From assembly GCA_963711735.1 (NCBI GenBank), contig CAVQFA010000003.1, positions 470,966 through 534,965 on the forward strand: a stretch of 64,000 bases of DNA, written 5' to 3'. The stretch comes from Candidatus Gottesmanbacteria bacterium. GTDB taxonomy: Bacteria; Patescibacteriota; Microgenomatia; UBA10105; UBA927. The position numbers and the translations under genes were made by a program. Positions 607 through 26,232 of the stretch are shown one piece after another. Below the pieces are notes generated by a model. That model was not told where the DNA came from. It saw only the letters and a program-made list of their open reading frames with translations, and did no database searches. Position 1 is the first letter of the stretch; each line of letters begins with the position of its first letter.

Positions 607-755
607 AACCCTTTTTTAAAAGGAGCGGAACCCTCCGGCGCGTATACGTGTTTGGATGATACACATATCACTATCTGTTGATAGTAGAGAATAGATGAGT
701 AAATATTTTCGTTTTACGAAGGAGGGTAACATTAGATTTATAGAAAGGAGCACAT

Positions 756-992
756 ATGCCGAGAATAGTAATAAAAACAGCAAAAGGACCAAAGGTACTT
801 GCACCACAGAAAGACATCTATGAAATATGCATGTGCGGACTATCCGAAAACCAACCGTTTTGCGATAAATCCCATAGAAAAACGCTGGATGAAAAAGAGA
901 ATATTCTCTACACGTATGACAAAGAAGGTAACCGTACGGAGTGTGAATCATGTGAAGGCGAATGTTGCGGATGCTGCCATGATTCAAAGTAG
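756..992 (+). CDS. CDGSH-type iron-sulfur domain protein with extra C-terminal Cys-rich tail
   Basis: Strong SD (AAGGAG) 8 nt upstream. Motif C-M-C-x2-S-x3-P-x-C-D-K-S-H matches the CDGSH 3Cys-1His signature. C-terminal CESCEGECCGCCH cluster. Confidence 0.7.
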   Translation: MPRIVIKTAKGPKVLAPQKDIYEICMCGLSENQPFCDKSHRKTLDEKENILYTYDKEGNRTECESCEGECCGCCHDSK

Positions 993-1009
993 AGTGTAAT
1001 TATTTCCAT

Positions 1010-1444
1010 ATGCATAAAAGTGAAATCGGTCTGAGGATATTCATTCCTCTCATACTTGCAGGATTTTTTTTTACCTGGCTTTTTGTTCCTATTAAAGGAA
1101 TTCCGAGGCCTAATATCGGAAAATATACGATTGTTTCACCCTGTGCAAAACCGCGTACGTACTCCGTTGCCTCCGTTGATCCCAAATACGGCATGACGAG
1201 AGAGGAAGTTGTTACGCTGGTGAGTGAGGCTGCCTCAGTTTGGAATGCAGCATCCGGATGGCAGATATTTTCATACAGTACAAATGGTGATATACCCGTT
1301 ACATTATCCTATGACGAACGTCAGGCTCTCGCTGACAGGATACAGAATATGGAGGGTAATTTAAATACCAGAAAGTCTACACTAGACCAGAAATCTCAGA
1401 ATTTTGAACGGGATGCGGCGCAGTTTAAAAAGAAATGTAGCTGA
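1010..1444 (+). CDS. N-terminal part (signal anchor plus coiled coil) of metzincin-like protease; frame breaks at an A-run near 1427-1440
   Basis: N-terminal hydrophobic segment. A coiled-coil-like region continues without a sequence break into the next ORF in another frame. Confidence 0.45.
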   Translation: MHKSEIGLRIFIPLILAGFFFTWLFVPIKGIPRPNIGKYTIVSPCAKPRTYSVASVDPKYGMTREEVVTLVSEAASVWNAASGWQIFSYSTNGDIPVTLSYDERQALADRIQNMEGNLNTRKSTLDQKSQNFERDAAQFKKKCS

Positions 1445-2027
1445 TCTGAATAACACGATAGAGTATTGGAATACTCACGGGGGAGCACCCCAGGATGAAT
1501 TTAATAAGATAGTTGAAACGCAAAACCAACTCAGGACAGAAGCAGCGCGTTTAAACGGAATTGCCGCGGAGCTTAACATGTCCGCGCAAATGTTTAACGC
1601 TGACGTCAAAAGTCTCAACAATACCATCACAGAGTTCAATACTGAGATCCGTGGCCGTCCGGAAATGGGGGTATACGACCACGGTGATAATACAATCACG
1701 ATTTTTTTCTATACGACCAAGGATGAGCTTGTCCATACACTCTCGCATGAATTCGGACATGCCCTAAATTTCGAACATACGGACGATTCTGCGTCAATCA
1801 TGTACCCGTATACGACATCCGTGAAGACGTTATCATATGCCGATATCCAGACAGTGAAAGAATACTGCCGTCCTAAAAGCGTGTTTGAGATATTTCAGCA
1901 ACATGTATTGGATACATACCAAATTCTGACCTCCCGGGAGTTTAAAGCAAGGTTTATGGATGTTTTTAAAAAAATCCCGGATGTACTCAGTGGTAAAATT
2001 TCTCCAAGTCAGCTTTTAGCTGAATAA
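1404..2027 (+). CDS. Zinc metalloprotease catalytic domain, metzincin/matrixin-like (HEFGHALNFEH ... SIMYP Met-turn)
   Basis: HExxHxxxxxH zinc-binding motif plus a downstream SxMxP Met-turn. Overlaps the upstream ORF in a different frame, so probably a single gene with a frameshift or sequencing error. Confidence 0.6.
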   Translation: MNGMRRSLKRNVADLNNTIEYWNTHGGAPQDEFNKIVETQNQLRTEAARLNGIAAELNMSAQMFNADVKSLNNTITEFNTEIRGRPEMGVYDHGDNTITIFFYTTKDELVHTLSHEFGHALNFEHTDDSASIMYPYTTSVKTLSYADIQTVKEYCRPKSVFEIFQQHVLDTYQILTSREFKARFMDVFKKIPDVLSGKISPSQLLAE

Positions 2028-2044
2028 TAGTAAAAATATTAGGA

Positions 2045-2551
2045 TTAAGGTCCTGTTGCAACACCGCTTACTTTCCATACATCGTTTATTTTTTCGACAG
2101 TGATCCACCGCGTATTTTCTCCTTCATCCCAAAGTATGTTTGCCGTGGGTTTCAGTGACGCATGTAATACAACTTTATAAATTTCCTTCATATCTGTCCA
2201 GGAAGATTGATCATACGCGTCAATTGTAGTTAGGGATAAAGAACTGAATGCATTAAACGTGACACCCCATGCCTGTTTGGAAGTCTCATCAGGTGCAGCG
2301 GTAGGCGATAACATGGAGACAGCCTCCGGTGTGTGTTTTTCATTGATAAGTGCAATAAATACGCGAATGATATCTATTCCGGTCGGAAGAGGTACTCCGT
2401 TATTGGTTTGAATCTCCGGTTGGAGAAACATCCTGAGTAGGAGCGTTATTCTGGGGCAATGCGTGAGTTTCGTTGACCGTGAAGTATATATGGGATATCC
2501 GATAATTCCGATGACAACAATGACGCAAAAACCTATGATATATTTGATCAT
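2045..2551 (-). CDS. hypothetical protein with N-terminal transmembrane anchor
   Basis: 168-aa ORF with an N-terminal hydrophobic helix. No recognisable motif. Confidence 0.4.
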   Translation of the reverse strand: MIKYIIGFCVIVVIGIIGYPIYTSRSTKLTHCPRITLLLRMFLQPEIQTNNGVPLPTGIDIIRVFIALINEKHTPEAVSMLSPTAAPDETSKQAWGVTFNAFSSLSLTTIDAYDQSSWTDMKEIYKVVLHASLKPTANILWDEGENTRWITVEKINDVWKVSGVATGP

Positions 2552-2782
2552 ACTGTTTCTTGTGAATACTCCACCAATATGATATCATACGAATATTCAT
2601 TTACAAGTTTAAAGCAATATATCTGCTTAAAATAATTGGTTCGTCCCGGTGGCGGGATATGAGGTTGCCTCTTTGTTCTATCCGATTTCCCCACACATAC
2701 GATACTTATGTTTTCCCTTTTTAGCAGTTTTATTCCTTTAACATGCAAAAATCTTATACGGAAAGGAGGGGAAATATAAATT

Positions 2783-3157
2783 ATGGCTAAACGTTTATTC
2801 GTCGGGAGTCTCCCGTACGACACAACAAACAATCAACTGGAAGAATTATTCGGTCAAGTTGGACAGGTCGAATCTGTAAATTTGGTTACTGACAGGTATA
2901 CCGGTCAGGGAAAAGGATTTGCATTCGTCGAAATGGTCAACGAAGCTGATGCACAGGCAGCGATCCAAAAACTCAATGGTTACGCAATGGGTGGAAGGAC
3001 TATCGTTGTCAACGAAGCACGTCCGCGCGAAGATCGTCCTAACAGGGGCGGTGGAGGTGGCGGAGGTGATTTCAGAGGCGGAAGAGGCGGTGGAGGTGAT
3101 TTCAGAGGCGGAGGTGGAGGTGGCAGAGGCGGTTTTGACAGAGGAAAGCGCTGGTAA
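2783..3157 (+). CDS. RRM-type RNA-binding protein with Gly/Arg-rich (RGG) C-terminus
   Basis: RNP-2 (LFVGSLP) and RNP-1 (KGFAFVEM) motifs. C-terminal GGGGGGDFRGGRGG repeats. SD AAGGAGGGG upstream. Confidence 0.85.
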   Translation: MAKRLFVGSLPYDTTNNQLEELFGQVGQVESVNLVTDRYTGQGKGFAFVEMVNEADAQAAIQKLNGYAMGGRTIVVNEARPREDRPNRGGGGGGGDFRGGRGGGGDFRGGGGGGRGGFDRGKRW

Positions 3158-3186
3158 ACACACACAACAATTTTCCAAAAAAAATT

Positions 3187-3220
3187 AAAACCCCGATGGC
3201 ATGTACGGGGTTTTATTTTT
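3187..3220. terminator. Rho-independent terminator hairpin (CCCCG...CGGGG) followed by a T-tract, between the convergent genes at 2783-3157(+) and 3249-4301(-)
   Basis: GC stem followed by TTTTATTTTT, with an A-tract on the other side, so it can act in both directions. Confidence 0.6.
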
Positions 3221-3248
3221 GGATAAGAAACGAGTTTCAATTTCCGAC

Positions 3249-4301
3249 TTAGTTTCGAAATTGCCAGAGGACATGGTAGTCATTGCTGCAGGGAGGACCT
3301 ATGGCTATCTCAATTGTTCCTGTTCCCATATCGATTACAGTTGAAAATGTAGTGTGCTGTCTATGATCTTTTCCGTCGTGTTTACAGATGGTCATTTCTG
3401 ACGGAATATTCTCAGGTCCGTGATCCCGGAGTATTTTTTTCAGTTGGGGAACGATGGGTTGTTCAGGTACTAAACTGTCGAGTAATATCTGAGCTCGTAT
3501 TAAACGGCCTGTAGAATCACCATCATCCGGTTCTTTATCATATGGTGTCATTTCTTCAGTGTAATGATTTGTGTGAACAATATGTCCGTATTCATCCGGT
3601 TTGACAATGCGATGATTTGTTGCAGATCCCTCGAAACAAACTACATGGTGATAGTCAGCTATTATATTGTTATATGATGAGGCGCGTTCCGGATGGTTTG
3701 CGATAGTCAGAGCCTCCGTTAGATCTTTTGCATCAAGAATTGCTAGCGCAATAATCCATCGTGGTATTCCTTCATCTCTACAGTCATTTTGGGATAACTC
3801 GTTTCCGGAAAGAGCTATCACGTCTCCGTTTGACTTTTTTGTCACGCCGACACTCATAAACGGACCTAAGCCGATTTCCAGAGTGCTGCCCCTATAGGTG
3901 TTCCACGTAACTACTGACACGAATGGAAGAAGTTCCGAACCGGCATCATTATTGTGGGCAATAATGGGATATGGGTTTGTGACAACCAAGTCGGTGCATT
4001 TCTTTATTTCAAAAGTATCATATGTCTCTTCGGAGGCTAAAGCGAAAATATCTTCAAACAGGAGACCTGATCCGGATGCTATTCCTCTCAGCTGATCAAT
4101 GATATGCGGAAAATGCTGTACAGATGCGGGAAGAAACTTCTGCGCGTGATTACGGACAACCTCCCATGGAGTATTAACAGTTAACTCTTTTTGCACCATC
4201 GCTAAAAAATTGTGAAGCATTTCCTGATAGTGTTTTCCTACCTTCAAACCACATTCAAGATCTGACCCTTGTGCGAAAAATGTTTCGATTGAATTACTCA
4301 T
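3249..4301 (-). CDS. hypothetical Ntn-hydrolase-like protein (possible C45 / acyl-CoA:6-APA acyltransferase-like family)
   Basis: 350-aa ORF. The overall composition and a Cys-containing segment (KKCTDLVV) resemble self-processing Ntn hydrolases. The assignment is tentative. Confidence 0.35.
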   Translation of the reverse strand: MSNSIETFFAQGSDLECGLKVGKHYQEMLHNFLAMVQKELTVNTPWEVVRNHAQKFLPASVQHFPHIIDQLRGIASGSGLLFEDIFALASEETYDTFEIKKCTDLVVTNPYPIIAHNNDAGSELLPFVSVVTWNTYRGSTLEIGLGPFMSVGVTKKSNGDVIALSGNELSQNDCRDEGIPRWIIALAILDAKDLTEALTIANHPERASSYNNIIADYHHVVCFEGSATNHRIVKPDEYGHIVHTNHYTEEMTPYDKEPDDGDSTGRLIRAQILLDSLVPEQPIVPQLKKILRDHGPENIPSEMTICKHDGKDHRQHTTFSTVIDMGTGTIEIAIGPPCSNDYHVLWQFRN

Positions 4302-4470
4302 ATAATTTATTTGAATAGTGGGTTTTATTTTTATTGGCAGGAAGATGAAAGGTTGTCTATACTGGTAAAGAAGAAATTGAACATGAATACATATGATTTA
4401 TGGATAATATAAAAACAATATTTCGGTTTGTCAATAAATGCAGGAGTGATTTGATTTTCAATAGTATAAT

Positions 4471-4806
4471 ATGATCTGTATGAATACGTCACCTGAAGCA
4501 GAAGAACAACACGAATCGCGTTATCTGGATTTTTTGAAAGACTGTCTTGACGGAAATCTGTGGGAGAATTTAACATTCGAACAATGGAATAGAATAAAGT
4601 ATAGAGAGTCATTGCTGTCTGAATACAACGATTATTGTCTGCAAAATTTAATAAATGCAAATGGGGATATTAAAGAGCTTCAGCTTCACGATGGAAATTT
4701 TTATGATTGGATGGCAGAAGTGAAAGGAATCGCACTAACATCAGATGAAGAAGAAATGAGAATTTACACATCGCAACCGGAACAAACGGAATCACCTATA
4801 GAATAG
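4471..4806 (+). CDS. hypothetical acidic protein
   Basis: 111-aa ORF preceded by a TATAAT-like box. Competes with an antisense ORF at 4331-4660. Confidence 0.3.
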   Translation: MICMNTSPEAEEQHESRYLDFLKDCLDGNLWENLTFEQWNRIKYRESLLSEYNDYCLQNLINANGDIKELQLHDGNFYDWMAEVKGIALTSDEEEMRIYTSQPEQTESPIE

Positions 4807-4866
4807 CGTACCGGAACGATAACAGAAACCAATAGAATCACTGCAATAAATGAAACAGGCCGGAAG

Positions 4867-5220
4867 TTAGAGAATTTCTTTAATGGCACTCGCGGGATAA
4901 CAGGATTCTCTTTTTCGCTGGATCTCGGTTTCCCAAAACAATTGTTCCTCAGGGGAAACATCGTCGATAGAAATCGCCTTCAGACCATATTGTTCAAACG
5001 CAGCATCATTAGGCATGCCGTACGGATATATATTCGCGATAATCATGGCCATATCTAAATGTTCTCTCACGCGGTTGGCATCGGATATTACGATAAGTTT
5101 TATTGGTTCGTCTTTCAGATCCGGGGGTGAAACCATTACGTTAACTACTAAACCCGGACGATAGTCAATTGGTTTAGCGTTACGGTCGGTGTAAAGAGCG
5201 AACGATGTATCTTTTAGCAT
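4867..5220 (-). CDS. hypothetical protein
   Basis: 117-aa ORF with no motif. Confidence 0.4.
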   Translation of the reverse strand: MLKDTSFALYTDRNAKPIDYRPGLVVNVMVSPPDLKDEPIKLIVISDANRVREHLDMAMIIANIYPYGMPNDAAFEQYGLKAISIDDVSPEEQLFWETEIQRKRESCYPASAIKEIL

Positions 5221-5373
5221 AATTTATCTCGTATTGTACTTTTATAATGATAAATGTCAATGTTTTGGGCGTTAAAACAACGGAATTACACATGTTGGGA
5301 AAATATTAAAACGTTTTTACTTCGATAGTAAACTGGTATAATTGGATTTATTCATTAAATTTATCTCAACAAT

Positions 5374-6027
5374 ATGATAAAACTAGCAATTATAGATTTC
5401 GATGACACATTGTGCATGACTGAGGAGGCGTGTTTTCATCTTGAAAATGATGCAGCTTCGAAATTAGGATTTCCACCGATGGGCAGGGATGTGCATAAAA
5501 AAAGTTGGGGTCAACCTGTAGAAATTGCCATTCTTGAGAGAATTCCCGGAATTGACCCGGAAAAATTCATGTCAAAACTAACGGCACTAATGCCCAAGTT
5601 AATTCAGGAAGGTAAATTGGATGTAATAACCTCACAAAATCTTTCAGCACTTGATGCTTTGAAAAAAAACGGAATGCACCTGGCACTATTAACGACTCGT
5701 ACTTTTAATGAAGTTAAACATTTAATAAACAGAAGCCATCCTTTATCAACCAGGATTGAAGCGTTCTATTATAAAGAAAATTCGGTGTTCAGGAAGCCGG
5801 ACCCGAGGGTGTTCACGGAGATTCTGGAAAAATTTAACATAAAACCCCGGGAGGCTGTATATGTCGGTGATAACGTCAGTGATGCGGAGTGCGCAAAGTC
5901 AGCCGGATTGTTTTTTATAGCTTCACTTGAAAGCGGACTGAAGACTAAAAAAGATTTTGGAAAAATAGATTACTTTATTGATAAGTTTTCAGATCTCCCA
6001 AAAGCCCTAGATTTTCTCAATAAGTAA
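5374..6027 (+). CDS. HAD-superfamily hydrolase
   Basis: N-terminal DxDxT motif (IIDFDDTL) and C-terminal VGDNVSDAECAKSAG motif IV. Confidence 0.75.
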   Translation: MIKLAIIDFDDTLCMTEEACFHLENDAASKLGFPPMGRDVHKKSWGQPVEIAILERIPGIDPEKFMSKLTALMPKLIQEGKLDVITSQNLSALDALKKNGMHLALLTTRTFNEVKHLINRSHPLSTRIEAFYYKENSVFRKPDPRVFTEILEKFNIKPREAVYVGDNVSDAECAKSAGLFFIASLESGLKTKKDFGKIDYFIDKFSDLPKALDFLNK

Positions 6028-6081
6028 GTATACTTGTTGGGATGGTATTGGAACTTTTTATAGCTTCGTCATGGAGCGAAA

Positions 6082-6546
6082 TTATTTAGCACTTTTTTGA
6101 TGCATAGCTTTATCTATTAATACAACTTGATTACTTCTCAGCAGTGGCATTTTGTCTTGTGAAAAAAAACCATATGCAGACACTTCCTGACTTGGAGTAA
6201 ATTCGCCACCGATAAATAAACCGGTATAACACATGTCCAGTCGGGAGCCGTTACGATCAGTGCGGGTTTTCAGTGGTGCGTCGACGCTTACGACAAGGCC
6301 CGATTCTTCCTTTATTTCCCTTTCAAGTGCTTCTGCGGGGTGCTCGCCGGATTTTAAATAACCGCCCGGCAGACTCCAGGCGTGTTGCCTATATGTATGA
6401 TTAAAAAGTAATACTTCGTTTTTTTCATTAAAAATAACTCCTGTAACTCCGACTAAAAATTGATTCTGAAAAAGGCGCATAAAAAACAACTGTACACCTT
6501 TTGGTAGGTTTAATATTTTCCATATCTTAGCGAGTAGTGATTTCAC
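6082..6546 (-). CDS. NUDIX hydrolase
   Basis: Nudix box GGYLKSGEHPAEALEREIKEESGL. Confidence 0.8.
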   Translation of the reverse strand: MKSLLAKIWKILNLPKGVQLFFMRLFQNQFLVGVTGVIFNEKNEVLLFNHTYRQHAWSLPGGYLKSGEHPAEALEREIKEESGLVVSVDAPLKTRTDRNGSRLDMCYTGLFIGGEFTPSQEVSAYGFFSQDKMPLLRSNQVVLIDKAMHQKSAK

Positions 6547-6890
6547 AATGCGTTTTTATCTTGAGGTTCATTAGACTTGGAGTCATTTTTGAGTCTCTCG
6601 TTTTCTAACTCCAGCTGGTGAATTCGTTTGGTCAAATCAACAATATCGCTTTTCCCGTGTTTGATCGCTGAATCCTTCCTGTGCATGGAAAAGGCGGTAA
6701 AAATTGAATTGATAAGATATATACAGTACGCTAATCCCAGTCCCGTTAAAAGAGAACCGATGATGACATAAAAGAGCGGAATACCGGAGAGTACGGATGT
6801 TCCAAGGCGTAAAGTTACCAACATCGAGTTATTTTGTGCCAGATACGCCATGATAGCGCCGATAATTAATAAGAAAATAAGTATAGGCAT
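6543..6890 (-). CDS. small membrane protein, LapA/DUF1049-like (two TM helices plus coiled coil)
   Basis: Two N-terminal hydrophobic helices, then a coiled-coil tail. 4-nt overlap with the NUDIX gene. The ATG at 6890 is the likely start. Confidence 0.5.
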   Translation of the reverse strand: MPILIFLLIIGAIMAYLAQNNSMLVTLRLGTSVLSGIPLFYVIIGSLLTGLGLAYCIYLINSIFTAFSMHRKDSAIKHGKSDIVDLTKRIHQLELENERLKNDSKSNEPQDKNAL

Positions 6891-6971
6891 TTCATATAGT
6901 ATACACACTTATCAAAATATTTTCTCATAAAGTATGTTCCAACATCGTCCCCTCTGGGAGCATATTTAATA

Positions 6972-7040
6972 AATTTCTCAGTACCCCAAATGATTTCTCG
7001 TTGGAACAAGCTTTTAGCCTCAATACGAGCGTGGAAAGGA
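6972..7040 (+). repeat. Short member (copy A) of a tRNA-Glu-3'-end-seeded repeat family: ...tctcaGTACCCCaaatgatttctcGTTGGAACaagcttttagcctcaatacgagcgtgg
   Basis: About 88% identical to 8829-8900. Shares the GTACCCC and GTTGGAAC...agcctcaata words with the long copies at 11.85, 13.2 and 14.27 kb. An inverted GTTCCAAC lies about 50 bp upstream. Confidence 0.6.
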
Positions 7041-7204
7041 ATTTTAGAACCTAATCTTCTCCCAGCCTTGAAGTATGTTTACAAACGAGTATTAGAATTT
7101 TGTATATATTCACGACATTTCATTTATTATTATACATTTATAGTTTGAACTATTTTTCTTCTTCTGATTTATATGCTAATATTAAACTAAATGAAACTAA
7201 AAAT

Positions 7205-8779
7205 ATGAATAGAAACAAGTACAATAAGGAGTCGTTTATATTTTTTTTAACCTTCATTGTAATTTCAGTCTCCCTGTTTGCCACATTTTCTATTGTCAGA
7301 CGTATTCAGATAGGAGAAAGTGTTCTTCCTCAAAAATCAAAAGCCGCATCTCAAACTACTGAACATTGGTTTCACCCAAATTACCATTATAAGTTCAATC
7401 ATGACTTAGCTTCATCTGCTTGGGGAAGTTATTTCACAAATACATCACAAACCGGAAATATTTTGAATAATATTAATGTATATGGACTGTTTGTAGAGCA
7501 AATAGAGAAAAATGAAGGAAATTTCTTACAGCAACTTATACCTCTTCTTAAAAGTAAAAATATAAAAATTTCTACGGAAGGTGGTCCTGCAAAATGTAAA
7601 GATAATAAGCTCATTGATGGAGCACAATGGGCAGATTATTTTCTGAATACTCTTTTAAAACCACTTTATGATGCAGGAGGGACTGTTGACTATTTTTCTT
7701 TTAGTGGATTTCCTGCACACACAATAAGCAGAACATCAACACCTATATGTACTACTAATATTAATGAATCTCTACCTGAACTTGTCAAGTTCATGAAAAG
7801 GTTTCATGAAGTCCATCCGGAAACAAAATTCGGTCTTATTATAAATTTTCCTAATTATGGTTATGGAAATAACATATCATACTGGTCAAATAATGAACCT
7901 TGGGGAGATTATAAAAGTCATTTAGAAAAGATATTGACTGCTGTAGATAATGCAGGAGAAAAACTCTATTACGTTCATATTGATAATCCATACGATTATG
8001 CCATAGGAGAACGCCCCCATACAATCCAAGGTATCGATTGGATGCAAAGAATAGTCGATATAGAAAAACAAACAAAAATGCATGGATTACGGTTTGGTCT
8101 TATTGTTAATTCTGAACGTGGAGGAATAGGCTATGACAAAAACAGCGGAAACGATAAACAATTCTATGATGACTCGATGGCATTTCTTAAAGAGTATTAT
8201 GAAAAAGGAGGAAGACTCGATAGTGTTATAGTAGAAAGTTGGTATAACCATCCATCTGCATTATTTCCTGATTATACCCCTTATACAATGACCTACAATG
8301 CTCTTAAGGCTTATCAGTTATACGATTCATTAACAAACGGCGTTAAAACGGTCAACCGATTAAAAAATGAGTCCGGAATTACGTTTATTGTCATGAGTGC
8401 TACAGAACAGAAAAGTGCAATCGAGAAGTACGGATATAAATCGCCAACGCCTCTTTTCCGGGCATGGGAATCAAAGAACGATGCAAATCTACACCCTGTC
8501 TATAGATTATTTAAAGCAAATGAAGGGTATTTATATACCAATGGGGAAAAGGAAAAAAATAACGCAATTAGTATCTACGGGTACTCGTTAAATGGCGTTG
8601 CGTTTTACGCATATTCCCGAAAAATAAACGATTCAGTACCCGTTTATCGCTTACAGTTAACCAATTCTGACGGTGGTTCGAGATTTTTATATACTTTATC
8701 AGAAACCGAAAAAAATACGTTAATAAACAACGGTAATTATAAATTGAACGGAATAGCATTTTACGCACTCCCTCCGTAA
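7205..8779 (+). CDS. secreted/membrane-anchored protein with C-terminal tandem DUF5648-like repeats (PVYRL...G.YLYT... x2); extremely AT-rich
   Basis: Long ORF running 7100-8779, with the likely start at Met 7205 (MNRNKYNK...) followed by a TM/signal segment. Two C-terminal repeats match the YRLYNP..GDHFYT...G pattern of DUF5648. GC is far below the neighbouring genes. Confidence 0.55.
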   Translation: MNRNKYNKESFIFFLTFIVISVSLFATFSIVRRIQIGESVLPQKSKAASQTTEHWFHPNYHYKFNHDLASSAWGSYFTNTSQTGNILNNINVYGLFVEQIEKNEGNFLQQLIPLLKSKNIKISTEGGPAKCKDNKLIDGAQWADYFLNTLLKPLYDAGGTVDYFSFSGFPAHTISRTSTPICTTNINESLPELVKFMKRFHEVHPETKFGLIINFPNYGYGNNISYWSNNEPWGDYKSHLEKILTAVDNAGEKLYYVHIDNPYDYAIGERPHTIQGIDWMQRIVDIEKQTKMHGLRFGLIVNSERGGIGYDKNSGNDKQFYDDSMAFLKEYYEKGGRLDSVIVESWYNHPSALFPDYTPYTMTYNALKAYQLYDSLTNGVKTVNRLKNESGITFIVMSATEQKSAIEKYGYKSPTPLFRAWESKNDANLHPVYRLFKANEGYLYTNGEKEKNNAISIYGYSLNGVAFYAYSRKINDSVPVYRLQLTNSDGGSRFLYTLSETEKNTLINNGNYKLNGIAFYALPP

Positions 8780-8828
8780 ATTTTAGTGAGGATCGAAGAT
8801 CGTCAATCCGTTATAGTAATTTTAGTAG

Positions 8829-8900
8829 AAATTTCTGTACCCCAAATGATTTCTCGTTGGAACCAGATTTTATCTTCAATACGAGCGTGGGAAGAATACC
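8829..8900 (+). repeat. Short member (copy B) of the same repeat family, a direct repeat of 6972-7040 flanking the 7205-8779 gene
   Basis: gaaatttctGTACCCCaaatgatttctcGTTGGAACcagattttatcttcaatacgagcgtggg, about 88% identical to copy A. Confidence 0.6.
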
Positions 8901-9099
8901 TGAATTCGGTTTCGTTGCAACTTTGCAATGTTACTACTAATTAGAATTAAATACATCCGTTGTGATGATTGAAAAAATTACTGGTATTAATCTGGGTCTA
9001 TGAGGTAAGGACTTAGTATAGTTGCTATTTTATTGTTTTTAGGTATATACTTTCACTCATTATAAAGTATCTGCCTGCTGCCTCATTTTCTATATCAAT

Positions 9100-10914
9100 A
9101 TGAATGCTAAAACTGAAGTTCCACTAAACACGCATCAGGCTCAATATGTTTCTGAACAATTAACGTCATTTCAACCTGAAAAAGCGAAAGGTACAAATAG
9201 TTTATTAGAATCTCTCTTCAGATCCATAAATACATTAGGAAATGAGTATGCGTTTCTGGCAGCTGCTCAGCTCAACGGTGACTCCGACTATCAAAACATG
9301 ATTGCAGAAAGGGTCATTGCCAAGGAATATCAGCATCTTCAAAAACCAAAGACTATGGACGCATACAATGAAGCGGTTCGGATCGGCAGAGAAACCGAAA
9401 CTGTAAAAAGGGTGTTATTTGCCCGAGTTCTACTGGAACATCCCGAGTCATTCTCTCCGGTCGAACATGAACTATTGGGCGGTGCAGTTATACTTTCCCA
9501 ATACGCGGACACTATATTTTTCGATGAATGGTTGCCAACTATACGTGATAGTGAGATAGGTAAAGCTCTGCATGCACTAGAAGAACAAGCAGCCGGCTCA
9601 TCATTGGGTGTACTACCCGGGACTCCCGATTCAATGCGTTGGTTTACTAGAAAACTCATTGATTCTGACAAACCCATTGAAAAAGATAATATTCAGCTGG
9701 TTCCATATAAAGATGCACTTCCCACTGTTAACAACATGATAGTTTCACTCAGGGAAATGGCTGACAATTTGGAACTGTTAAAACACGAAGGACAGGATGA
9801 TTTCGGGTATGTTGAATATTTCCGGGCATGGGCAGAGTGTCTGGCAGGAGTTGATCCTAATACTCAAAAAGAGAAAGAGGATAATATGTTTATCACCTGG
9901 AGAAGAGTCAATCCTCAAGCGCCTCTGTATTTCGTCGCAATGGCTGAAAATGAATATGAAGATCCAGCTGGAATAGCAATGGTTCCGTCAGTTCGAGCTG
10001 GGGTTTTGGATGAGTCCGATCAAGCACAAAGTCTCAAACTGCAGGAATCAGATTTGAAAAATGTGATCATACAATATACAACAGAACAAAATGTGTTCGG
10101 CGCGGAAAATCTTAAAAGGACAGATACTCACTACCGGATCTGGTCGCTGTTCGGCGGGTCAGATATGCTTTTTGGTATCTCCTCAGAATTTTTACCAAAT
10201 GATCCCGGTATACAAAGTAAAGAAGGAGCAGGGATATTCCCGGACCTTGCCCAGCAGGAAAAAGGGCATTATACACGAGATGTGTTTGCAGAAAAAGTGT
10301 ATCCCGAACCAATTCTCACAATTCTTAGAGATCTAAGATTTTCCTTGCAAGAAGGTTCAATTCATGAAATTCAATCACATGAACTCAATCATTTACCAGC
10401 GGTCACTCTGGAGGCAATTAACGCGATTGGGAAAACCAGAAATCTTCTGGAAGAAGCAAAGGCCACACTGGGAGGTTTAATCGCTCAAATACGAATTCGA
10501 CATAATCAGGATATAGAATTTCAAAAACGGGCAGCTGCAACACTACTTCATGCGGCACCTCGGTATATGGCAATTGACGGAAATCCGACATATCAGGGAT
10601 ATGTCAACGACACGAGGATAGTACTCATTGCAGCAGAAAAAGCAAACATACTAACGTTTAATGAGGCCAACGGATGGAGTCTGGATCTGGACAATACTGA
10701 CAAAATTGTATGGTTTTGGAACTTAATTGAAGAGTTTGTCGCATGGACGTATCACTTGTATGCTGATGTGACAGATGCACCAGTTGAGCAAAGGCCGGGA
10801 ATCGCCCAAAGAAATGCCGGGGAATTGGATACTTGGGTTGGTAAAAAACCTGAACCGGGTAATGATTTAGTAAATGATCGAACTATACGGGCTATAAAAT
10901 CTGCTCTTCAATAA
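9100..10914 (+). CDS. hypothetical cytoplasmic protein (604 aa), cargo gene
   Basis: Long uninterrupted ORF. No SD, no signal peptide and no recognisable domain. Contains a single HELNH (HExxH-like) string. Confidence 0.5.
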   Translation: MNAKTEVPLNTHQAQYVSEQLTSFQPEKAKGTNSLLESLFRSINTLGNEYAFLAAAQLNGDSDYQNMIAERVIAKEYQHLQKPKTMDAYNEAVRIGRETETVKRVLFARVLLEHPESFSPVEHELLGGAVILSQYADTIFFDEWLPTIRDSEIGKALHALEEQAAGSSLGVLPGTPDSMRWFTRKLIDSDKPIEKDNIQLVPYKDALPTVNNMIVSLREMADNLELLKHEGQDDFGYVEYFRAWAECLAGVDPNTQKEKEDNMFITWRRVNPQAPLYFVAMAENEYEDPAGIAMVPSVRAGVLDESDQAQSLKLQESDLKNVIIQYTTEQNVFGAENLKRTDTHYRIWSLFGGSDMLFGISSEFLPNDPGIQSKEGAGIFPDLAQQEKGHYTRDVFAEKVYPEPILTILRDLRFSLQEGSIHEIQSHELNHLPAVTLEAINAIGKTRNLLEEAKATLGGLIAQIRIRHNQDIEFQKRAAATLLHAAPRYMAIDGNPTYQGYVNDTRIVLIAAEKANILTFNEANGWSLDLDNTDKIVWFWNLIEEFVAWTYHLYADVTDAPVEQRPGIAQRNAGELDTWVGKKPEPGNDLVNDRTIRAIKSALQ

Positions 10915-11012
10915 GATAAATCCCTATATATACTCACCTGTGATATTCATCTACGTTGGATCAACGATATTTGATCTTGGAACACGGGTTGTTATAACAG
11001 GAAGAACTTTTA

Positions 11013-11072
11013 ATTTTGTACCCCGTAGCTTATCAAATTAGGACTTATTTTCAATCGATGATTTGATAATAA
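11013..11072 (+). repeat. Degenerate family member (copy C): ttttGTACCCCgtagc followed by a 9-bp-stem hairpin (ttatcaaat...atttgataa)
   Basis: Only the ttttgtacccc word and the upstream TTGGAACAC word are shared, so membership is weak. Confidence 0.25.
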
Positions 11073-11093
11073 TTATTTGGTATCTTCAGTTTG

Positions 11094-11639
11094 TTAATTC
11101 TGAATAGCTTGATCTGCTGGATACTTCCATTGATTTAAGTTTTTTTGAAATACTTGTCCAATATTATTGTGTAAACGAGCAACAACTGTTAGCAAATCTT
11201 CTGGCAAATCAAATGCTAAACCATTTTCAGTACCATAAAGAATTGACCCGTCTTGTGCTGTTACTACTCCGCAATCTAATCCAAAATCACGTTCATCGTT
11301 ACCGGGTATTCGATAAGTAAATTCTGTCTCAGTTGTGTGTGTATTAAAATTAAATAAACCATCAAATGATAATGTATCTGCATCTAAGATTTTTTGATCG
11401 TCTGGTGATAACATCTGTGCTGCCTCTTGAATAATTATTGGATTTAACCAGGCAGCATCAAGATGTGCTGTTAATTCCTTTATACCTTGCTTTCTTTCTG
11501 ATCCTATATCAGATAAATCTGCTTCTTCAAGTCGTGCTTGATCGAGCAATTCAATAGGCAATCCCAATTCTTCCATTCGTGCAATTACCAGGTTTGAGGC
11601 TAGCTCACGAATTTGTTGTGGTATTTCATGATCAGACAT
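11094..11639 (-). CDS. hypothetical acidic protein (181 aa), cargo gene on the opposite strand
   Basis: ORF with a good SD (AAGGAGGAA) immediately upstream on the minus strand (11641-11650). Confidence 0.5.
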   Translation of the reverse strand: MSDHEIPQQIRELASNLVIARMEELGLPIELLDQARLEEADLSDIGSERKQGIKELTAHLDAAWLNPIIIQEAAQMLSPDDQKILDADTLSFDGLFNFNTHTTETEFTYRIPGNDERDFGLDCGVVTAQDGSILYGTENGLAFDLPEDLLTVVARLHNNIGQVFQKNLNQWKYPADQAIQN

Positions 11640-11848
11640 ATTCCTCCTTAGTGAGCAGGAAGGTAATAATAATGATTTTCTTTGAAGAAATCAATGATTA
11701 TAAAAACTAAATCAAGTGCCTAGTTAATTAGACAGCCATCCTTTTCATTAGGGATGGGTTACCAACATAGGGCATAGATTAACTAGATATCTAAGGTTGT
11801 CCTTAAAATATAGAGGCTACTGTAAACGATTGTTGTATCACTTTTATT

Positions 11849-12050
11849 TGGTACCCCCTGCCGGATTGCCGCGATTACTCGACACTCGCCAGCACTAAAG
11901 CTCGTTGACTCGCTAAGTGCTGGTTGGCGAACCTCCGGTTCTCATCTAATGCAGAGTATTGCATAAAAAAATCGGGCGTAAAACCCGATATTTTTATGCA
12001 GTACACGTGTTGGAACCAAATTGGAACATATTTTAATCTCAACCACTTAG
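11849..12050 (+). repeat. Long divergent family member (R0): tRNA-3'-end-like GTACCCCCTGCCGGATT, imperfect hairpin module, palindromic terminator, tail GTACACGTGTTGGAAC...GGAACATATTTT
   Basis: About 75% identical to 13207-13420 over about 200 bp. Hairpin arms differ but keep their pairing (compensatory changes). The terminator is GCATAAAAAAATCGGGCGTAAAACCCGATATTTTTATGC. Confidence 0.6.
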
Positions 12051-12160
12051 ATTTCAATCCGCATTAATAAGAAATTGGTGAATTTGGTTCATAGTATTAA
12101 TTAGATAAATATCTTATAGTTGTTAATGAAAGTATTCATTGATATAATGCTCCAATTATT

Positions 12161-13198
12161 ATGTCGTATGTACCTGAAACTCTTGTATTAACACTTTCCC
12201 GGCAGTGTAATATTGAATGTAGTCACTGTATCGTCGAAGCAGAACCGAGAATATCAGAAGAACTTGATGTCAATATCATTAATTCTTCGCTTAGGCAAGC
12301 AAAGCAAATTGGCATACGAACTGTTTGCATCTATGGTGGAGAACCGTTTCTCCAGACCAGCGGACTTCTTCCTCACACCATACGCCAAACCTTTGCTGAG
12401 GGATTTCCTTTCGTTTCAATCGGAACAAATGGATTTTGGGGAAGAACAGAAGCACAGGCACAAAAAACACTATCCGAGTTGAAAAAGATAGTTAGCTCTT
12501 ATGACGGTATGATTGGTCTTGGCATGTCAGTAGACCGATTCCACCAACCGAGCGTACCACCACAATCAATTGCAAATATAATTTCAGTTCATAGACGTGG
12601 TAATTTCCCAAATATTCGATTAGGAATTCATACGTTCAAAGATCAACCATCATTTGATATTGTCGGACAGGTATATGATCGTGCGATGCGTAATGATTTG
12701 CATATGATCGAGAGTAATGACGCAGGATATATATATCCTGCGTTGAGAGAAGAGTTTATCGAGTTTTCCAGTGAGAACTTTCCCGTCATTAGACGTAATC
12801 TTGATTTACCTGAGGATGCAGATGAAAAGCATATCTTTGAATCACTTGTATTCAATCTTGATGTTTCACATGCAATGCGCGATGTGATGTTACCAAAAAT
12901 AATCGCACGTCAGATGGATATCGGTAACGGATTCGAAAATTACTTGATCTTTCCCAATCATACATATTTATTAGATTTTATTGTTGAGGAAAAAGTACTG
13001 AATGCCGGAAGGGCAAGGATTTCAGGTAATTTAGAAACTGCCCGCGATATGGACTCAGATACTGACTATTTGGTCATCGCTCCAAATGGTCAAGCATATG
13101 CCTATCCTGCTCATATTACCGCAGAATCAGGAATTATTATCGGAAATAAATCACTAAAACAGGTTGTAAGAGAAGTTGAAAACAAATGGTTCTATTAG
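12161..13198 (+). CDS. radical SAM domain protein (CX3CX2C motif C-N-I-E-C-S-H-C); cargo gene
   Basis: Canonical CxxxCxxC cluster at residues 16-23, followed by a glycine-rich SAM-binding segment (CIYGGEPF). No SPASM/twitch Cys cluster. Confidence 0.7.
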   Translation: MSYVPETLVLTLSRQCNIECSHCIVEAEPRISEELDVNIINSSLRQAKQIGIRTVCIYGGEPFLQTSGLLPHTIRQTFAEGFPFVSIGTNGFWGRTEAQAQKTLSELKKIVSSYDGMIGLGMSVDRFHQPSVPPQSIANIISVHRRGNFPNIRLGIHTFKDQPSFDIVGQVYDRAMRNDLHMIESNDAGYIYPALREEFIEFSSENFPVIRRNLDLPEDADEKHIFESLVFNLDVSHAMRDVMLPKIIARQMDIGNGFENYLIFPNHTYLLDFIVEEKVLNAGRARISGNLETARDMDSDTDYLVIAPNGQAYAYPAHITAESGIIIGNKSLKQVVREVENKWFY

Positions 13199-13206
13199 TT
13201 TAAAAA

Positions 13207-13368
13207 GTACCCCCAGTCGGATTCACTGCAAAGCTACGCTTTGAGTGCTCGCCAGCAGTATGACTCGTAAATATGAATTTACTCGTTAACTGCTGGTTAG
13301 CGAACCTTCGGTTCTCACCGACATGGGCATGAAAAAAGCACCCATTAGGGTGCTTTTTTCATGAGTAC
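13207..13368 (+). repeat. Repeat R1, a 162-bp unit 100% identical to 14266-14427. Its first 18 nt (GTACCCCCAGTCGGATTC) match the 3' end of the tRNA-Glu gene exactly
   Basis: Exact identity read from the sequence. Contains an imperfect hairpin (CGCCAGCAGT...ACTGCTGG) and a perfect 16-bp-stem hairpin CATGAAAAAAGCACCC-atta-GGGTGCTTTTTTCATG. A degenerate tail GTACACCTGTTGGGACGATGTTGGAACATATTT follows to about 13420. Confidence 0.9.
13328..13363. terminator. Perfect 16-bp-stem, 4-nt-loop hairpin with A-tract and T-tract arms (bidirectional intrinsic terminator) inside repeat R1
   Basis: CATGAAAAAAGCACCC ATTA GGGTGCTTTTTTCATG. Confidence 0.7.
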
Positions 13369-13471
13369 ACCTGTTGGGACGATGTTGGAACATATTTAGC
13401 CTCAAATATCTAAGTAATATATTTTTTTACGAGAGTATTATTCGGAAAATCAAATATGTTACACTGAATAT

Positions 13472-14260
13472 ATGAGTGAATCTGACATAAAAGTTAATAT
13501 TCAGCCGTCAGAAATTCAGCCTCAATCCGAACAGCCAAAGGAAGCCCGCGCACCAGTCCCCGGAATGAATAAAATAAAGTCATCTCATCTTCAGATAGCA
13601 TTGATGGCACTTCTTCTTATATCGATCACTACAGCAGGATATCTTGGTTATAAGTATTACGTATTCAATAATACATTAACTGTTACGCCGCCACAGCCTG
13701 AACAACCAGTTAAAACCATACCAACAATTACCCCTATTCTGACACCAGTATTTTCAATATCAGTAAATCCCGCTACAGGTCAGAATTTATATTCAAACAC
13801 AACATATGGGTTTAGTTTTGAATATCCTAAGGATTTTGTTATTGAAAATCAAAACCCCCCTAGTATTGGAGTAATGGGTAACAATATTGTCGGGCTCATC
13901 CGAAGATCTATGTACTTCCTGCCTAACTACCTACAAAATATAAGTAGGTATAATGAATATCGAAATCGGTTCACCAATATAAAAAAGCTAAATGTCGGAG
14001 AGTCGTACACATATGAACCAGTAGATACTTTTTTTGAGACGACAACCAGAATAGCTGATATGAAAATCGGAGGAATAACTTCTTATGTTTTTGATGTTCC
14101 TAAGGTTTGGGAAGGGGAAGGACCGTATAGAGAAATATATTTACCCAAAGGTGATGATTATATACAGATATTTTATACGAATTCTAACGATAAAGAAGAT
14201 CCGATTGATTACGTAAAAGGCTTTAACCAGATTCTATCCACTTTTAAATTTACTTATTGA
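13472..14260 (+). CDS. hypothetical membrane-anchored protein (262 aa), cargo gene flanked by the perfect repeats
   Basis: A hydrophobic helix at about residue 40 and a Pro-rich linker. No motif. Confidence 0.5.
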   Translation: MSESDIKVNIQPSEIQPQSEQPKEARAPVPGMNKIKSSHLQIALMALLLISITTAGYLGYKYYVFNNTLTVTPPQPEQPVKTIPTITPILTPVFSISVNPATGQNLYSNTTYGFSFEYPKDFVIENQNPPSIGVMGNNIVGLIRRSMYFLPNYLQNISRYNEYRNRFTNIKKLNVGESYTYEPVDTFFETTTRIADMKIGGITSYVFDVPKVWEGEGPYREIYLPKGDDYIQIFYTNSNDKEDPIDYVKGFNQILSTFKFTY

Positions 14261-14265
14261 TTTTT

Positions 14266-14427
14266 GTACCCCCAGTCGGATTCACTGCAAAGCTACGCTT
14301 TGAGTGCTCGCCAGCAGTATGACTCGTAAATATGAATTTACTCGTTAACTGCTGGTTAGCGAACCTTCGGTTCTCACCGACATGGGCATGAAAAAAGCAC
14401 CCATTAGGGTGCTTTTTTCATGAGTAC
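14266..14427 (+). repeat. Repeat R2, a 162-bp unit identical to R1 that abuts the tRNA-Glu gene and overlaps its 3' end by 4 nt; it includes the tRNA's terminator
   Basis: 100% identical to 13207-13368. Its terminal GTAC is the start of the genuine tRNA 3' segment. Confidence 0.9.
14388..14423. terminator. Perfect hairpin terminator immediately downstream of tRNA-Glu (minus strand), also able to act on plus-strand transcripts
   Basis: Same sequence as 13328-13363. Confidence 0.7.
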
Positions 14428-14498
14428 CCCCAGTCGGATTCGAACCGACGGTCTACACGTTGAGAACGTGTCGTCCTAGGCCGCTAGACGATGGGGGC
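14425..14498 (-). tRNA. tRNA-Glu, anticodon CUC
   Basis: Reverse complement GCCCCCAUCGUCUAGCGGCCUAGGACGACACGUUCUCAACGUGUAGACCGUCGGUUCGAAUCCGACUGGGGGUA folds as a cloverleaf (GUCU D-stem, ACACG/CGUGU anticodon stem, loop UUCUCAA, T-arm GUCGG-UUCGAAU-CCGAC). Close to E. coli tRNA-Glu. CCA is not encoded, and pair 1-72 is G.U. Confidence 0.85.
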
Positions 14499-25474: not shown

Positions 25475-26232
25475 GGGAACGATTACGGTTGGCAATATTT
25501 ATTTCCGGAGGTGGTTCTACGATGGATGCAATCGTGAGGGCAACGCAGCAGGATGGGCAGTTGAATAATCGTATAGAACCGGTCGTTGTTATTTCAAATA
25601 AACCGGATGCTTCCGGGATCTCCAAAGCACAAGCATTAGATATTCCGGTAAGGGTAGTTGACAGGAAAGATTTTGAGAAAGGTGAAAAAGGACTCGAACA
25701 ATTCGGATGGGCGATTCTGGCGTTTTTGAGGGAATTCTCCGCAGATTTTATAAGTCAAAACAGCTGGTTGGCGCTTACTCCCGCCAACGTGATTCAGGAG
25801 TATGAAGGAAAAATTTTTAACCAGCATCCCGGGCCATTGGATCCTGATCATAAAGGTTCTGACGGTTTGCCTTTACATTTCGGAGGTAAGGGCATGCATG
25901 GGTTGGCTGTGCATGCGGCTGTTTTGGAATTTCAGCGCATAAGTTCAAGAAGTTTTCCTGCGGAAGCTACAATTCATCGGGTTAATCCGGTTGTTGATGA
26001 AGGAGTTGTGGTGGCCCGAAACCAGGTAAAAGTTTTTTCCGGTGATTCACCGGAGAGTTTGGCAAGACGGGTATTACCCTATGAACACGAGCTGCAGATT
26101 GAATTTTGGAAAGGGGTATCAGACGGCGTAGGTACTGAATATCACCGTCCGGAACATCTTATTCATGAACACGAAGAAAATTTTCTTAAACAGGCAATAA
26201 TTTACGCCAGAAGTGCGTACCCAAACGGATAG
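25471..26232 (+). CDS. purN: phosphoribosylglycinamide formyltransferase (long form with C-terminal extension)
   Basis: LAIFISGGGSTMDAIV N-terminus and formyl-transferase fold. 4-nt overlap with purF. Confidence 0.8.
   Translation: MRERLRLAIFISGGGSTMDAIVRATQQDGQLNNRIEPVVVISNKPDASGISKAQALDIPVRVVDRKDFEKGEKGLEQFGWAILAFLREFSADFISQNSWLALTPANVIQEYEGKIFNQHPGPLDPDHKGSDGLPLHFGGKGMHGLAVHAAVLEFQRISSRSFPAEATIHRVNPVVDEGVVVARNQVKVFSGDSPESLARRVLPYEHELQIEFWKGVSDGVGTEYHRPEHLIHEHEENFLKQAIIYARSAYPNG

Follow-up and report, generated by a model that had tools for sequence, protein, structure and literature searches.

The gene at 7205-8779 lies in an array of repeat-bounded segments beside a tRNA-Glu(CTC) gene, and we consider it probable (about 60%) that this array was built up at a tRNA hotspot by successive site-specific insertions of cassettes that lack an integrase, with the DUF5648 gene as the cargo of one of them. 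The window (the whole stretch of 64,000 nucleotides analysed here) contains the anchoring tRNA at 14424-14498 on the minus strand, with the conserved genes GreA-LysRS-SerRS on its far side. The array spans 7.5-8.4 kb downstream of the tRNA and reaches at least position 6981. Nine same-strand GTAC junctions (6028, 6981, 8837, 11018, 11851, 12001, 13207, 13368, and 14266), followed by the tRNA itself at 14424, split it into two kinds of segment, namely a gene with a tail and a terminator with a structured unit. Every segment starts on the plus strand with a GTAC(C/A)CC core.

The DUF5648 gene is flanked by two direct repeats on the plus strand, copy A (6965-7038) and copy B (8821-8894). The first-pass annotation had read them as direct repeats around a cassette-like and compositionally foreign gene and had placed them in one family with the elements beside the tRNA, and our results agree with it on each of these points. 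The two copies are 85% identical over 74 nt in a repeat search, 89.7% over 68 nt in a gapped comparison, and 91% (53 of 58 columns, from GTACCCC to GTGG) in a pairwise alignment. The 27-mer GTACCCCAAATGATTTCTCGTTGGAAC is found exactly at 6981 and 8837 and at no other site, with 0 matches expected from 100 shuffles. The core words of copy A are GTACCCC (6981-6987), GTTGGAAC (7000-7007), and TTAGCCTCAA (7014-7023), and the core of copy B is GTACCCC at 8837-8843. These words recur in the elements near the tRNA, as had been claimed: all five occurrences of GTTGGAAC in the 64 kb fall within 6936-13391, and 7 of the 11 window copies of GTACCCC, all seven on the plus strand, fall within 6981-14430. 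An independent assembly (Logan, ERR12037368, 6967 nt) has the same gene order across A and B, as judged by gene sizes and spacing.

Copies A and B belong to a family of tails with about 45 conserved nucleotides (GTACnCC...TTGGAAC...TTT), located upstream of the cassette genes. The tails contain two TTGGnAC repeats 11 bp apart, are conserved in sequence rather than in structure, and all lie 45-260 nt before a gene start, in an orientation that is fixed relative to that gene. They open with the tRNA-like GTACnCC core, directly abut the terminator and unit in three genomes, and align as a family across the window and two related loci, L090 and L091. A and B had been taken for a short form of the long unit, which does not hold: a covariance search with the unit yields three copies only, and A and B match just the adjoining tail. 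They make up a tail subfamily of their own (GTACCCCAAAT...TTGGAAC), which is intact beside a terminator and unit in the genome of L091, and they are thus a variant rather than simply wreckage. With the tRNA they have only GTACCCC (7 nt) in common and are tied to it through the family alignment, so that their putative att-site origin rests on family membership and not on direct similarity. The tail itself was also compared by eye with a decayed tRNA 3' half and with an anticodon arm, and these alignments were unconvincing.

Two more tails lie beyond copy A. One is on the plus strand at 6028-6066 (GTATACTTGTTGGGATGGTATTGGAAC), beyond the DUF5648 cassette, and the other is inverted, on the minus strand at 6917-6951, upstream of a minus-strand LapA-like/NUDIX pair, with 21 of 22 positions identical to 13376-13397. 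They are the sole inverted tail pair; they flank the NUDIX/LapA segment at 6082-6908 and possibly bracket an inverted cassette. The inverted GTTCCAAC reported upstream of copy A is indeed present (6936-6943), as part of this full inverted tail, but it forms no attC-like hairpin: the single-stranded DNA folds of A and B are no better than those of shuffles (z from -1.6 to 0). The description of the DUF5648 cassette as the oldest and most decayed of the array is doubtful and at best partly right, with tails lying farther out, the A/B type intact in L091, and the gene itself intact.

The link to the tRNA is clearest in the units. These are structured, cloverleaf-like elements of about 120 nt that end in the tRNA 3' end, and all three window copies are on the minus strand. 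The tRNA-proximal one (14266-14423, with the unit at 14266-14381 and the terminator at 14387-14422) ends with 18 nt that reproduce the tRNA-Glu 3' end exactly. The next is followed by a palindromic terminator and a tail (13207-13410; unit 13207-13322, terminator 13328-13363, tail 13366-13410), and the stretch 13207-13371 is 99% identical to 14266-14430 over 165 nt. The third is diverged (11851-12045; unit 11851-11949, terminator 11971-11989, tail 12000-12045); in its tRNA-like core, AATCCGGCAGGGGGTAC, 2 of the 17 positions depart from the host tRNA. The match to the tRNA 3' end is complete at 14266 and 13207 (17 of 17 positions), covers 15 of 17 positions at 11851, and is limited to 7 nt at the junctions 11018, 8837, and 6981. 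The identity of the units to the tRNA breaks off inside the T-loop (GGATTC|), where integrases that target tRNAs usually carry out the crossover. We aligned 12 unit sequences from 10 loci, with 94% of the cells paired, and found compensatory changes in 12 of 21 pairs, a level that none of 500 shuffles reached. These changes point to a selected structure and not to mere homology. Rfam covariance scans of the array and the related loci gave the tRNA alone as significant, with no match for the unit.

The cargo gene (7205-8779, plus strand) is intact and encodes a protein of 524 amino acids with an N-terminal membrane anchor or signal helix, a TIM-barrel at about residues 53-345, and three DUF5648 repeats at residues 389-522. 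The Pfam match to DUF5648 over these last residues passes the gathering score (E 2e-24, 86.6 bits against a cut-off of 25), and the structure model predicts three beta-beta-alpha-beta repeats there. The composition of the gene is atypical: its GC is 0.343 (z -3.3, against 0.42 for the 43 core genes of the window) and its GC3 is 0.269 (z -2.8 against the same genes). Low GC had been claimed to set it apart from every other gene, which is nearly so, since only an 84-aa ORF at 59123-59377 is lower; one array gene, at 11094, is lower in GC3. The array genes as a group have GC3 values of 0.18-0.33, against 0.39 for core genes. Homologues of the protein are rare, just 19 among 5.8 billion proteins. 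Whether the closest ones come from unrelated taxa had been raised as a check, and the matches point elsewhere: the best, 55% identical, is from Gottesmanbacteria, and the remaining named DUF5648 matches are also from CPR bacteria. The label of KxYKxGKxW-type secreted protein found no backing in NCBIfam (no match at E <= 0.1), and a PDB sequence search with the protein returned no match. A distant homologue in another related locus (L095) lies inside a 3.3-kb low-GC islet bordered by a tRNA-Leu and a repeat that matches the 3' end of this tRNA at 19 of 20 nt. A search of 1.5 Mb of related loci with the tail profile (nhmmer) found no tails near DUF5648 homologues.

The other cargo genes of the array are directed toward the tRNA anchor, mostly in one orientation. 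Next to the DUF5648 gene, behind copy B, a plus-strand gene (9100-10914) encodes a CiaB-like DUF7897 protein of 604 aa. It is followed by a degenerate junction (10925-11024, plus strand), read by eye as a tail-like TTGGATC...TTGGAAC and then GTACCCC at 11018. Further toward the tRNA are a minus-strand gene for a 181-aa protein of no family (11094-11639, GC3 0.18), a plus-strand gene for a radical SAM protein of 345 aa (12161-13198), and a plus-strand gene for a membrane-anchored 262-aa protein of no family (13472-14260).

The content of the locus varies between relatives. The order tRNA-Glu-GreA-LysRS-SerRS is kept in about 20 Gottesmanbacteria-like loci, and in none of them does any window gene between 616 and 14260 occur at tRNA-Glu. 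The cassette gene and its repeats are missing in 80 LysRS-anchored loci as well as in L090, that is, in every relative examined (the closest available being about 76-79% identical in neighbouring proteins, and the best LysRS match 64%, among species-representative genomes). Being absent from the homologous loci of all relatives examined, they are not conserved and syntenic across these, the arrangement against which the first-pass annotation had set its cassette. The closest relative, L090 (GreA 79% identical in amino acids), has its own array, 8 kb or longer, whose cores, units, terminator, and tails match those of the window but whose cargo is entirely different; a search for cassette genes shared between the arrays found none. 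In other lineages, foreign tRNA-Glu 3' fragments lie behind the genome's own tRNA-Glu. No empty site, circular junction, or cassette-less strain was observed among relatives of which the closest is about 76-79% identical, and this counts against serial insertion. Pattern scans of IMG/VR with the unit and both tail types gave coding-sequence or chance matches only, BLAST of unit and tail against phages gave terminator-like hairpins only, and BLAST of the cassette against plasmids gave no match. Hence, with unit and tails absent from these collections, no free element is known. Further points against serial insertion are this absence, the lack of a recombinase among the ORFs tested, the short match (7 nt) of A and B to the tRNA, the want of any cassette gene common to the arrays, and the lack of tails near DUF5648 homologues elsewhere.

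Serial insertion would account for the layout as follows. Cassettes acquired horizontally, mostly of single genes, would have inserted one after another at the 3' end of tRNA-Glu(CTC), with every arrival pushing the earlier inserts outward, and the GTAC(C/A)CC core of the segments would derive from, or imitate, the tRNA acceptor end. The gene at 7205-8779 would be the cargo of a cassette at 6981-8836, with copy A as its tail and copy B as the tail of the adjacent DUF7897 cassette, and recombination between A and B would excise the DUF5648 gene and one tail as a circle. The cassettes would lack a recombinase, and an enzyme encoded elsewhere would act in trans at the GTAC/T-loop core. A Pfam search for integrases and recombinases found none in the 5 array genes, the 5 neighbouring ORFs (3249-6908), and 20 other window ORFs, and none in 10 ORFs of L090, 7 of L095, and 10 unit-adjacent ORFs of L088-L094; for the ORFs at 20-39 kb of the window, taken to be SecA and purine genes, the assessment was by eye only. 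This result covers the ORFs tested in 64 kb of a 567-kb contig and in ten related loci. A more ambitious possibility, which we entertain tentatively and think rather doubtful, is that Gottesmanbacteria-type CPR bacteria have a dedicated integron-like capture platform on tRNA-Glu, where single-gene cassettes move in and out at the GTAC/T-loop core, unit and tail serve as recombination modules, and either the enzyme is unlinked or a tRNA-like RNA or single-stranded DNA takes part; the DUF5648 cassette would then be one captured gene.

The same array might instead have been made and shuffled by homologous recombination, with the tRNA/GreA flank, the units, and the tails as portable homology for DNA from relatives. 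The failure to find a recombinase near the arrays fits this, as do the terminator and units common to the window and L090, and the 165-nt stretch of 99% identity is sufficient for RecA-type exchange. We nevertheless regard it as unlikely: the tails (about 45 nt) and the A/B repeats (58-74 nt) are short for efficient exchange, the strict polarity, the constant position of the junctions at GTAC cores, and the end of identity in the T-loop call for more than homology, and the unit's compensatory changes indicate that its structure is under selection. The constant placement of the tails before gene starts, including the inverted copy before the minus-strand LapA-like gene, would suit cis-regulatory modules (operator, promoter, or 5' leader) of co-regulated accessory genes, the array then being the architecture of a regulon, and the paired TTGGnAC repeats are what might be expected of a site for a DNA-binding protein. 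This is less probable still, since within the 64 kb the word GTTGGAAC occurs only in the array, the tail starts with a tRNA-like core and abuts the terminator and unit in three genomes, and the promoter and terminator scan did not rise above shuffles (33 sigma-70 promoters found, 35 expected). Regulatory and junction roles of the tails could coexist.

That the tails are the terminal repeats of a transposon or MITE carrying the DUF5648 gene is very improbable. Like Tn7- or Mu-type ends, they do start with TGT and contain 11-bp subrepeats in tandem, and an inverted pair brackets the NUDIX/LapA segment. The DUF5648 gene, however, is flanked by direct and not inverted copies, all tails except the inverted one share one orientation, and both a target-site duplication and a transposase are absent; we dropped this reading on the orientation of the repeats. 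Even less credence is due to an integron-type cassette array, or attC cluster without integrase, in which the repeats would be attC sites. The single-gene cassettes, mostly in one orientation, and a cargo like that of integrons (GNAT, toxin-like, and unknown genes) recall such arrays, and GTTGGAA resembles GTTRRRY, with an inverted GTTCCAAC upstream of A. Yet GTTGGAA breaks this consensus at its seventh position, an inverted partner is lacking for copy B, the window ORFs tested include no intI-like gene (the far side of the anchor being GreA-LysRS), and the repeats reproduce a tRNA-like end in direct orientation rather than forming imperfect palindromes, with genes that aim at the anchor and not away from it. 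Together with the lack of folding above shuffles, the core sites led us to abandon the attC reading.

Serial insertion of cassettes at the tRNA has partial precedents. In Prochlorococcus islands, integration in series is documented to leave partial tRNAs behind, and, like tycheposons and tRNA-targeting islands, the array lies on the 3' side of a tRNA and has, between its segments, partial copies of the tRNA 3' end in one orientation (10.1101/2020.12.28.424599). It would also share with them newer inserts nearest to the tRNA, and it has cargo that varies among relatives and an atypical composition. Unlike them, it is found in a CPR host, its segments are of 0.16-2 kb with one gene each and no integrase or integrase fragment found, and its junctions are marked by a structured tRNA-derived unit and a conserved tail. 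CIMEs, known from Streptococcus thermophilus ICESt, are integrase-less, att-flanked elements that accrete beside ICEs. The DUF5648 segment resembles them in being flanked by att-type repeats and in lacking a recombination module, and the array in its tandem accretion, with mobilisation presumably by the enzyme of a related element. Its elements are far smaller than CIMEs, however, their target is a tRNA T-loop/acceptor end, and no autonomous partner is known. With integron arrays it shares small, mostly promoter-proximal single-gene cassettes, conserved recombination-site-like repeats, one class of which (the unit) is conserved more in structure than in sequence, and hypervariable accessory cargo; it differs in its tRNA anchor, in junctions that are direct copies of the tRNA end, and in lacking intI, an attC hairpin, and R'/R'' core sites. 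IMEX (CTX/TLC-type) are integrase-less elements that exploit the host XerCD at dif. The array likewise stacks integrase-less elements in tandem at one chromosomal site, but its target is not dif and it has no phage genes.

How CPR bacteria, with their tiny genomes, acquire genes is poorly understood. The cassette reading explains how a rare secreted TIM-barrel/DUF5648 protein comes to lie in AT-rich DNA between two repeats, and the standout features of the array are its structure-conserved junction element and a cargo that is wholly different between relatives. The core, tail, and unit together are a concrete signature by which such arrays, at present a cause of breaks in metagenome assemblies, can be sought. 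If the reading is true, tRNA-stacked, integrase-less cassettes would be a compact way of sampling accessory surface, toxin, and enzyme genes, and the idea of tRNA-seeded islands would extend to the scale of cassettes.

The DUF5648 gene (7205-8779) lies between two direct copies of a short repeat, A (6965-7038) and B (8821-8894), which a repeat search of the window returned as a 74-nt pair with 85% identity and gapped local alignment as a match of 89.7% over 68 nt. Pairwise alignment gave 53 identical columns out of 58, from GTACCCC through GTGG, with about 16 nt to the left matching more weakly. The exact 27-mer GTACCCCAAATGATTTCTCGTTGGAAC occurs at positions 6981 and 8837 only, and none is expected in shuffled sequence. 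The repeats that the first-pass annotation placed around this gene are thus present. It had also assigned them to the family of the long units near the tRNA, and this holds in part: alignment places A and B with the tails (conserved junction sequences of about 45 nt) adjoining these units, and not with the unit body. A tail profile recovers A at E 5e-6 and B at E 2e-5. By sequence, A and B are junctions of the tail type and form a distinct tail subfamily; in another locus (L091), a tail of the same subtype (GTACCCCAAATTTTGACGCATTGGAAC) immediately adjoins a terminator and unit.

The sole tRNA of the window is a tRNA-Glu(CTC) (14424-14498, minus strand), whose 3' end reads GTACCCCCAGTCGGATTCGAACC on the plus strand. 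The first 17-18 nt of this sequence are repeated without change at 14266 and 13207 and with two differences at 11851; GTACCCC alone, lacking the longer tRNA match, is found at 11018, 8837, and 6981. There are seven copies of GTACCCC within 7.5 kb, all on one strand (3.7 expected over the whole 64 kb). Tails consist of GTAC(A/C)CC, then TGTTGGGAC and TTGGAAC spaced 11 bp, then TTTAGCCTCAA, and the five GTTGGAAC words that the window contains all fall within the array region. The putative relation of the tails to the tRNA is based on the 7-nt core and the family context. On the plus strand, the region can be divided into successive segments, each opening with a GTAC core: from 6028, a tail and an inverted NUDIX/LapA pair; from 6981, tail A and the DUF5648 gene; from 8837, tail B and a DUF7897 gene; from 11018, a core and a 181-aa gene; from 11851, a unit and terminator; from 12001, a tail (12000-12045) and a radical SAM gene; from 13207, a unit and terminator; from 13368, a tail (13366-13410) and a 262-aa gene; and from 14266, a unit and terminator, the series ending with the tRNA-Glu at 14424. 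The NUDIX/LapA-like pair (6082-6908, minus strand) lies between tails in inverted orientation (6028-6066 and 6917-6951), and this cassette looks as if it had been flipped through recombination between tails. An independent assembly (ERR12037368) includes a 6,967-nt contig in which the genes, from LapA-like through radical SAM, follow one another as in the window, which makes it unlikely that the arrangement is an assembly artefact; by coordinate arithmetic, this contig ends inside the repeated unit 13207-13371.

The unit, some 120 nt long, comes after a palindromic terminator and ends (in the tRNA sense) with the tRNA 3' end. Over 165 nt, the copies at 13207-13371 and 14266-14430 share 99% identity, and a covariance model finds the three long copies in the window and no others. 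Twelve units from 10 loci align around a conserved core, GGTTCGC-nnn-CCAGnnnTTAACGAG-hairpin-CGAGTCnTAnnnCTGG-TGAG. The consensus structure has 94% of its cells paired (80% in shuffles) and compensatory changes at 12 of 21 pairs (6.5 in shuffles); none of 500 shuffles matched the observed values, and the slid controls all collapse. The variable triplets of the search pattern are all complementary, a property that the pattern does not impose. Most single units fold as a four-way junction whose closing stem pairs the 5' leader with the tRNA-like 3' core, and G-U pairs favour the tRNA-sense strand. By eye, GGTTCGCAATCC is like the T-arm GGTTCGAATCC. In L088, the leader can be recognised as the anticodon arm and T-stem of a tRNA-Glu. 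The unit has no match in Rfam. The unit is a tRNA-derived element of conserved structure, which may act as RNA or as folded DNA. In two loci (L088:197-335 and L006:3718-3793), ARAGORN reports a second, partial tRNA-Glu(CTC) directly behind the first. The one in L088 consists of an anticodon arm plus T-stem that run into the unit, which gives the unit the look of the 3' part of a tRNA carrying an insertion of about 80 nt in its T-loop. Partial tRNA-Glu copies from the anticodon arm onward also adjoin units elsewhere (L093:5476-5540, L091:2264-2320, and L002:200-250). They look like a second class of att remnants, which would imply more than one element family at tRNA-Glu.

The best matches of the LysRS (15427-17742), at 60-64% identity, come from Candidatus Gottesmanbacteria and other Microgenomates MAGs, and the order tRNA-Glu(CTC)-GreA-LysRS-(HAM1-like)-SerRS is preserved in about 20 of the LysRS-matched loci. 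The length of the LysRS, 771 aa, is shared by Gottesmanbacteria relatives; in many relatives from Daviesbacteria and Levybacteria the match is confined to residues 1-527, so its C-terminal extension of about 245 aa appears, from these comparisons, to be lineage-specific. The content after tRNA-Glu differs in each genome: no window gene from 616 to 14260 was found in any of 80 loci, and the DUF2207-like gene at the window edge (25-606) is the sole one with a homologue, which adjoins the tRNA in L008. That gene ends in a Gly-run (573-602) similar to the Gly/Arg-rich tail, made of 30-nt GGnGGn repeats, of an RRM-type RNA-binding protein (2783-3157). By eye, from translations, 24068-38157 holds an almost complete gene cluster for de novo purine biosynthesis (purF, N, H, D, L, Q, A, B, E, C, and M), which is unusual for CPR bacteria.

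Three loci (L002, L005, L011) carry a terminator and a structured unit whose last part copies the 3' end of the resident tRNA-Glu. In four others (L007, L017, L018, L009), the first 100-300 nt downstream of the tRNA-Glu hold 3'-end fragments that agree with the tRNA-Glu of another lineage and not with the resident one, which suggests element exchange between lineages. Seven loci came out of a pattern scan of metagenome contigs, all with true units and five with a tRNA-Glu (CTC or TTC) beside them. The closest relative found (L090; GreA 79% and LysRS N-terminus 76% identical) has the same terminator as the window, cores at 8161, 7904, 7387, and 2037, three tails, and four units matched by the covariance model plus a fifth copy that was itself used in building the model. 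Its nine small genes (a receiver domain, LMW phosphatase, GNAT, PAS protein, and unknowns) are wholly unlike the content of the window. Among its cassettes is a second repeat family of about 175 nt (275-451, 4635-4809, and 6066-6240; best-matching copies 92-94% identical) with terminal inverted repeats GGGACGGAGGTT...AACCTCCGTCCC and no Rfam match. L014 has a tRNA-Glu 3'-end repeat, with a single mismatch, at a distance of 9.3 kb from its tRNA (16-32 and 9298-9372), and the island between them holds nine ORFs of 85-774 aa, with no integrase seen by eye. The tail scan also hit about six tandem (T)GTTGGAAC iterons in a viral contig (L125, IMGVR_UViG_3300038701_002343, around 9840-9925), a chance match probably unrelated to the tails.

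The single intact gene between A and B encodes 524 aa, with a start identical to that of the database copy. Its GC (0.343) and GC3 (0.269) are 3.3 and 2.8 SD below the 43 core genes of the window. Pfam recognises only DUF5648 (residues 389-522), and the KxYKxGKxW-type label given earlier found no NCBIfam match. In the AlphaFold model (mean pLDDT 78), a helix at the N-terminus (8-35) is followed by an eight-fold beta/alpha barrel (about 53-345) and by three repeats of beta-beta-alpha-beta type; Foldseek matches of the barrel are weak and non-specific (sugar epimerases and GH53, GH10, and GH35 glycosidases, E about 1e-6 to 1e-7, TM about 0.5 on target). It is reasonable to infer, but no more than that, a carbohydrate-active enzyme that is anchored in the membrane or exported and has DUF5648 as a binding module. 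Homologues are very rare (19 among 5.8 billion sequences). The best, a 380-aa Gottesmanbacteria protein, is 55% identical over the barrel only, and full-length relatives are 40% and 32% identical; the homologues come from CPR relatives and not from unrelated taxa. Their contexts all differ, with neither tails nor units found near them. The 32% homologue (L095) lies inside a 3.3-kb lower-GC segment bounded by tRNA-Leu(TAG) and a 19/20-nt direct repeat of the tRNA-Leu 3' end, with no integrase detected among its ORFs. Counting the window array, the gene family has thus served on at least two occasions as cargo of a tRNA-flanked islet.

These data fit a scenario in which cassettes would have inserted serially and site-specifically at the tRNA-Glu 3' end. 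The fit lies in the one-strand polarity of the cores, the tRNA identity ending inside the T-loop, the lower tRNA identity of copies farther from it, the foreign-type core seen in the 11851 unit, and the variable, compositionally foreign cargo. Earlier inserts would be pushed outward from the tRNA, an argument that presumes insertion at the tRNA only. The DUF5648 cassette would then have A as its junction and the neighbouring cassette would have B, and exchange between A and B would excise the DUF5648 gene. The cassette interpretation of the first-pass annotation is supported, with corrections to repeat class, homologue origin, and age: the DUF5648 cassette, described as the oldest and most decayed, is neither outermost nor simply most decayed. 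Homologous exchange through the repeats, instead of site-specific insertion, has to be taken seriously as an alternative. A regulatory role of the tails, every one of which lies upstream of a gene in fixed orientation, is another such alternative and may coexist with a role in recombination. An attC reading was rejected (there is no hairpin and the core site is wrong), as was a transposon (the repeats are direct, not inverted).

Outward displacement of older inserts, as proposed here under serial insertion, has been described for the tRNA-seeded islands of Prochlorococcus (10.1101/2020.12.28.424599). The window array differs from these in its scale of one gene per insert and in having no recombinase gene, either among the tested ORFs of the 64-kb window or beside units at other loci, from which we infer that the enzyme would be provided in trans. 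As a whole, this integrase-less array of cassettes at tRNA-Glu, with its conserved structured unit derived from a tRNA, looks like a new variation on tRNA-anchored islands and is worth following up.
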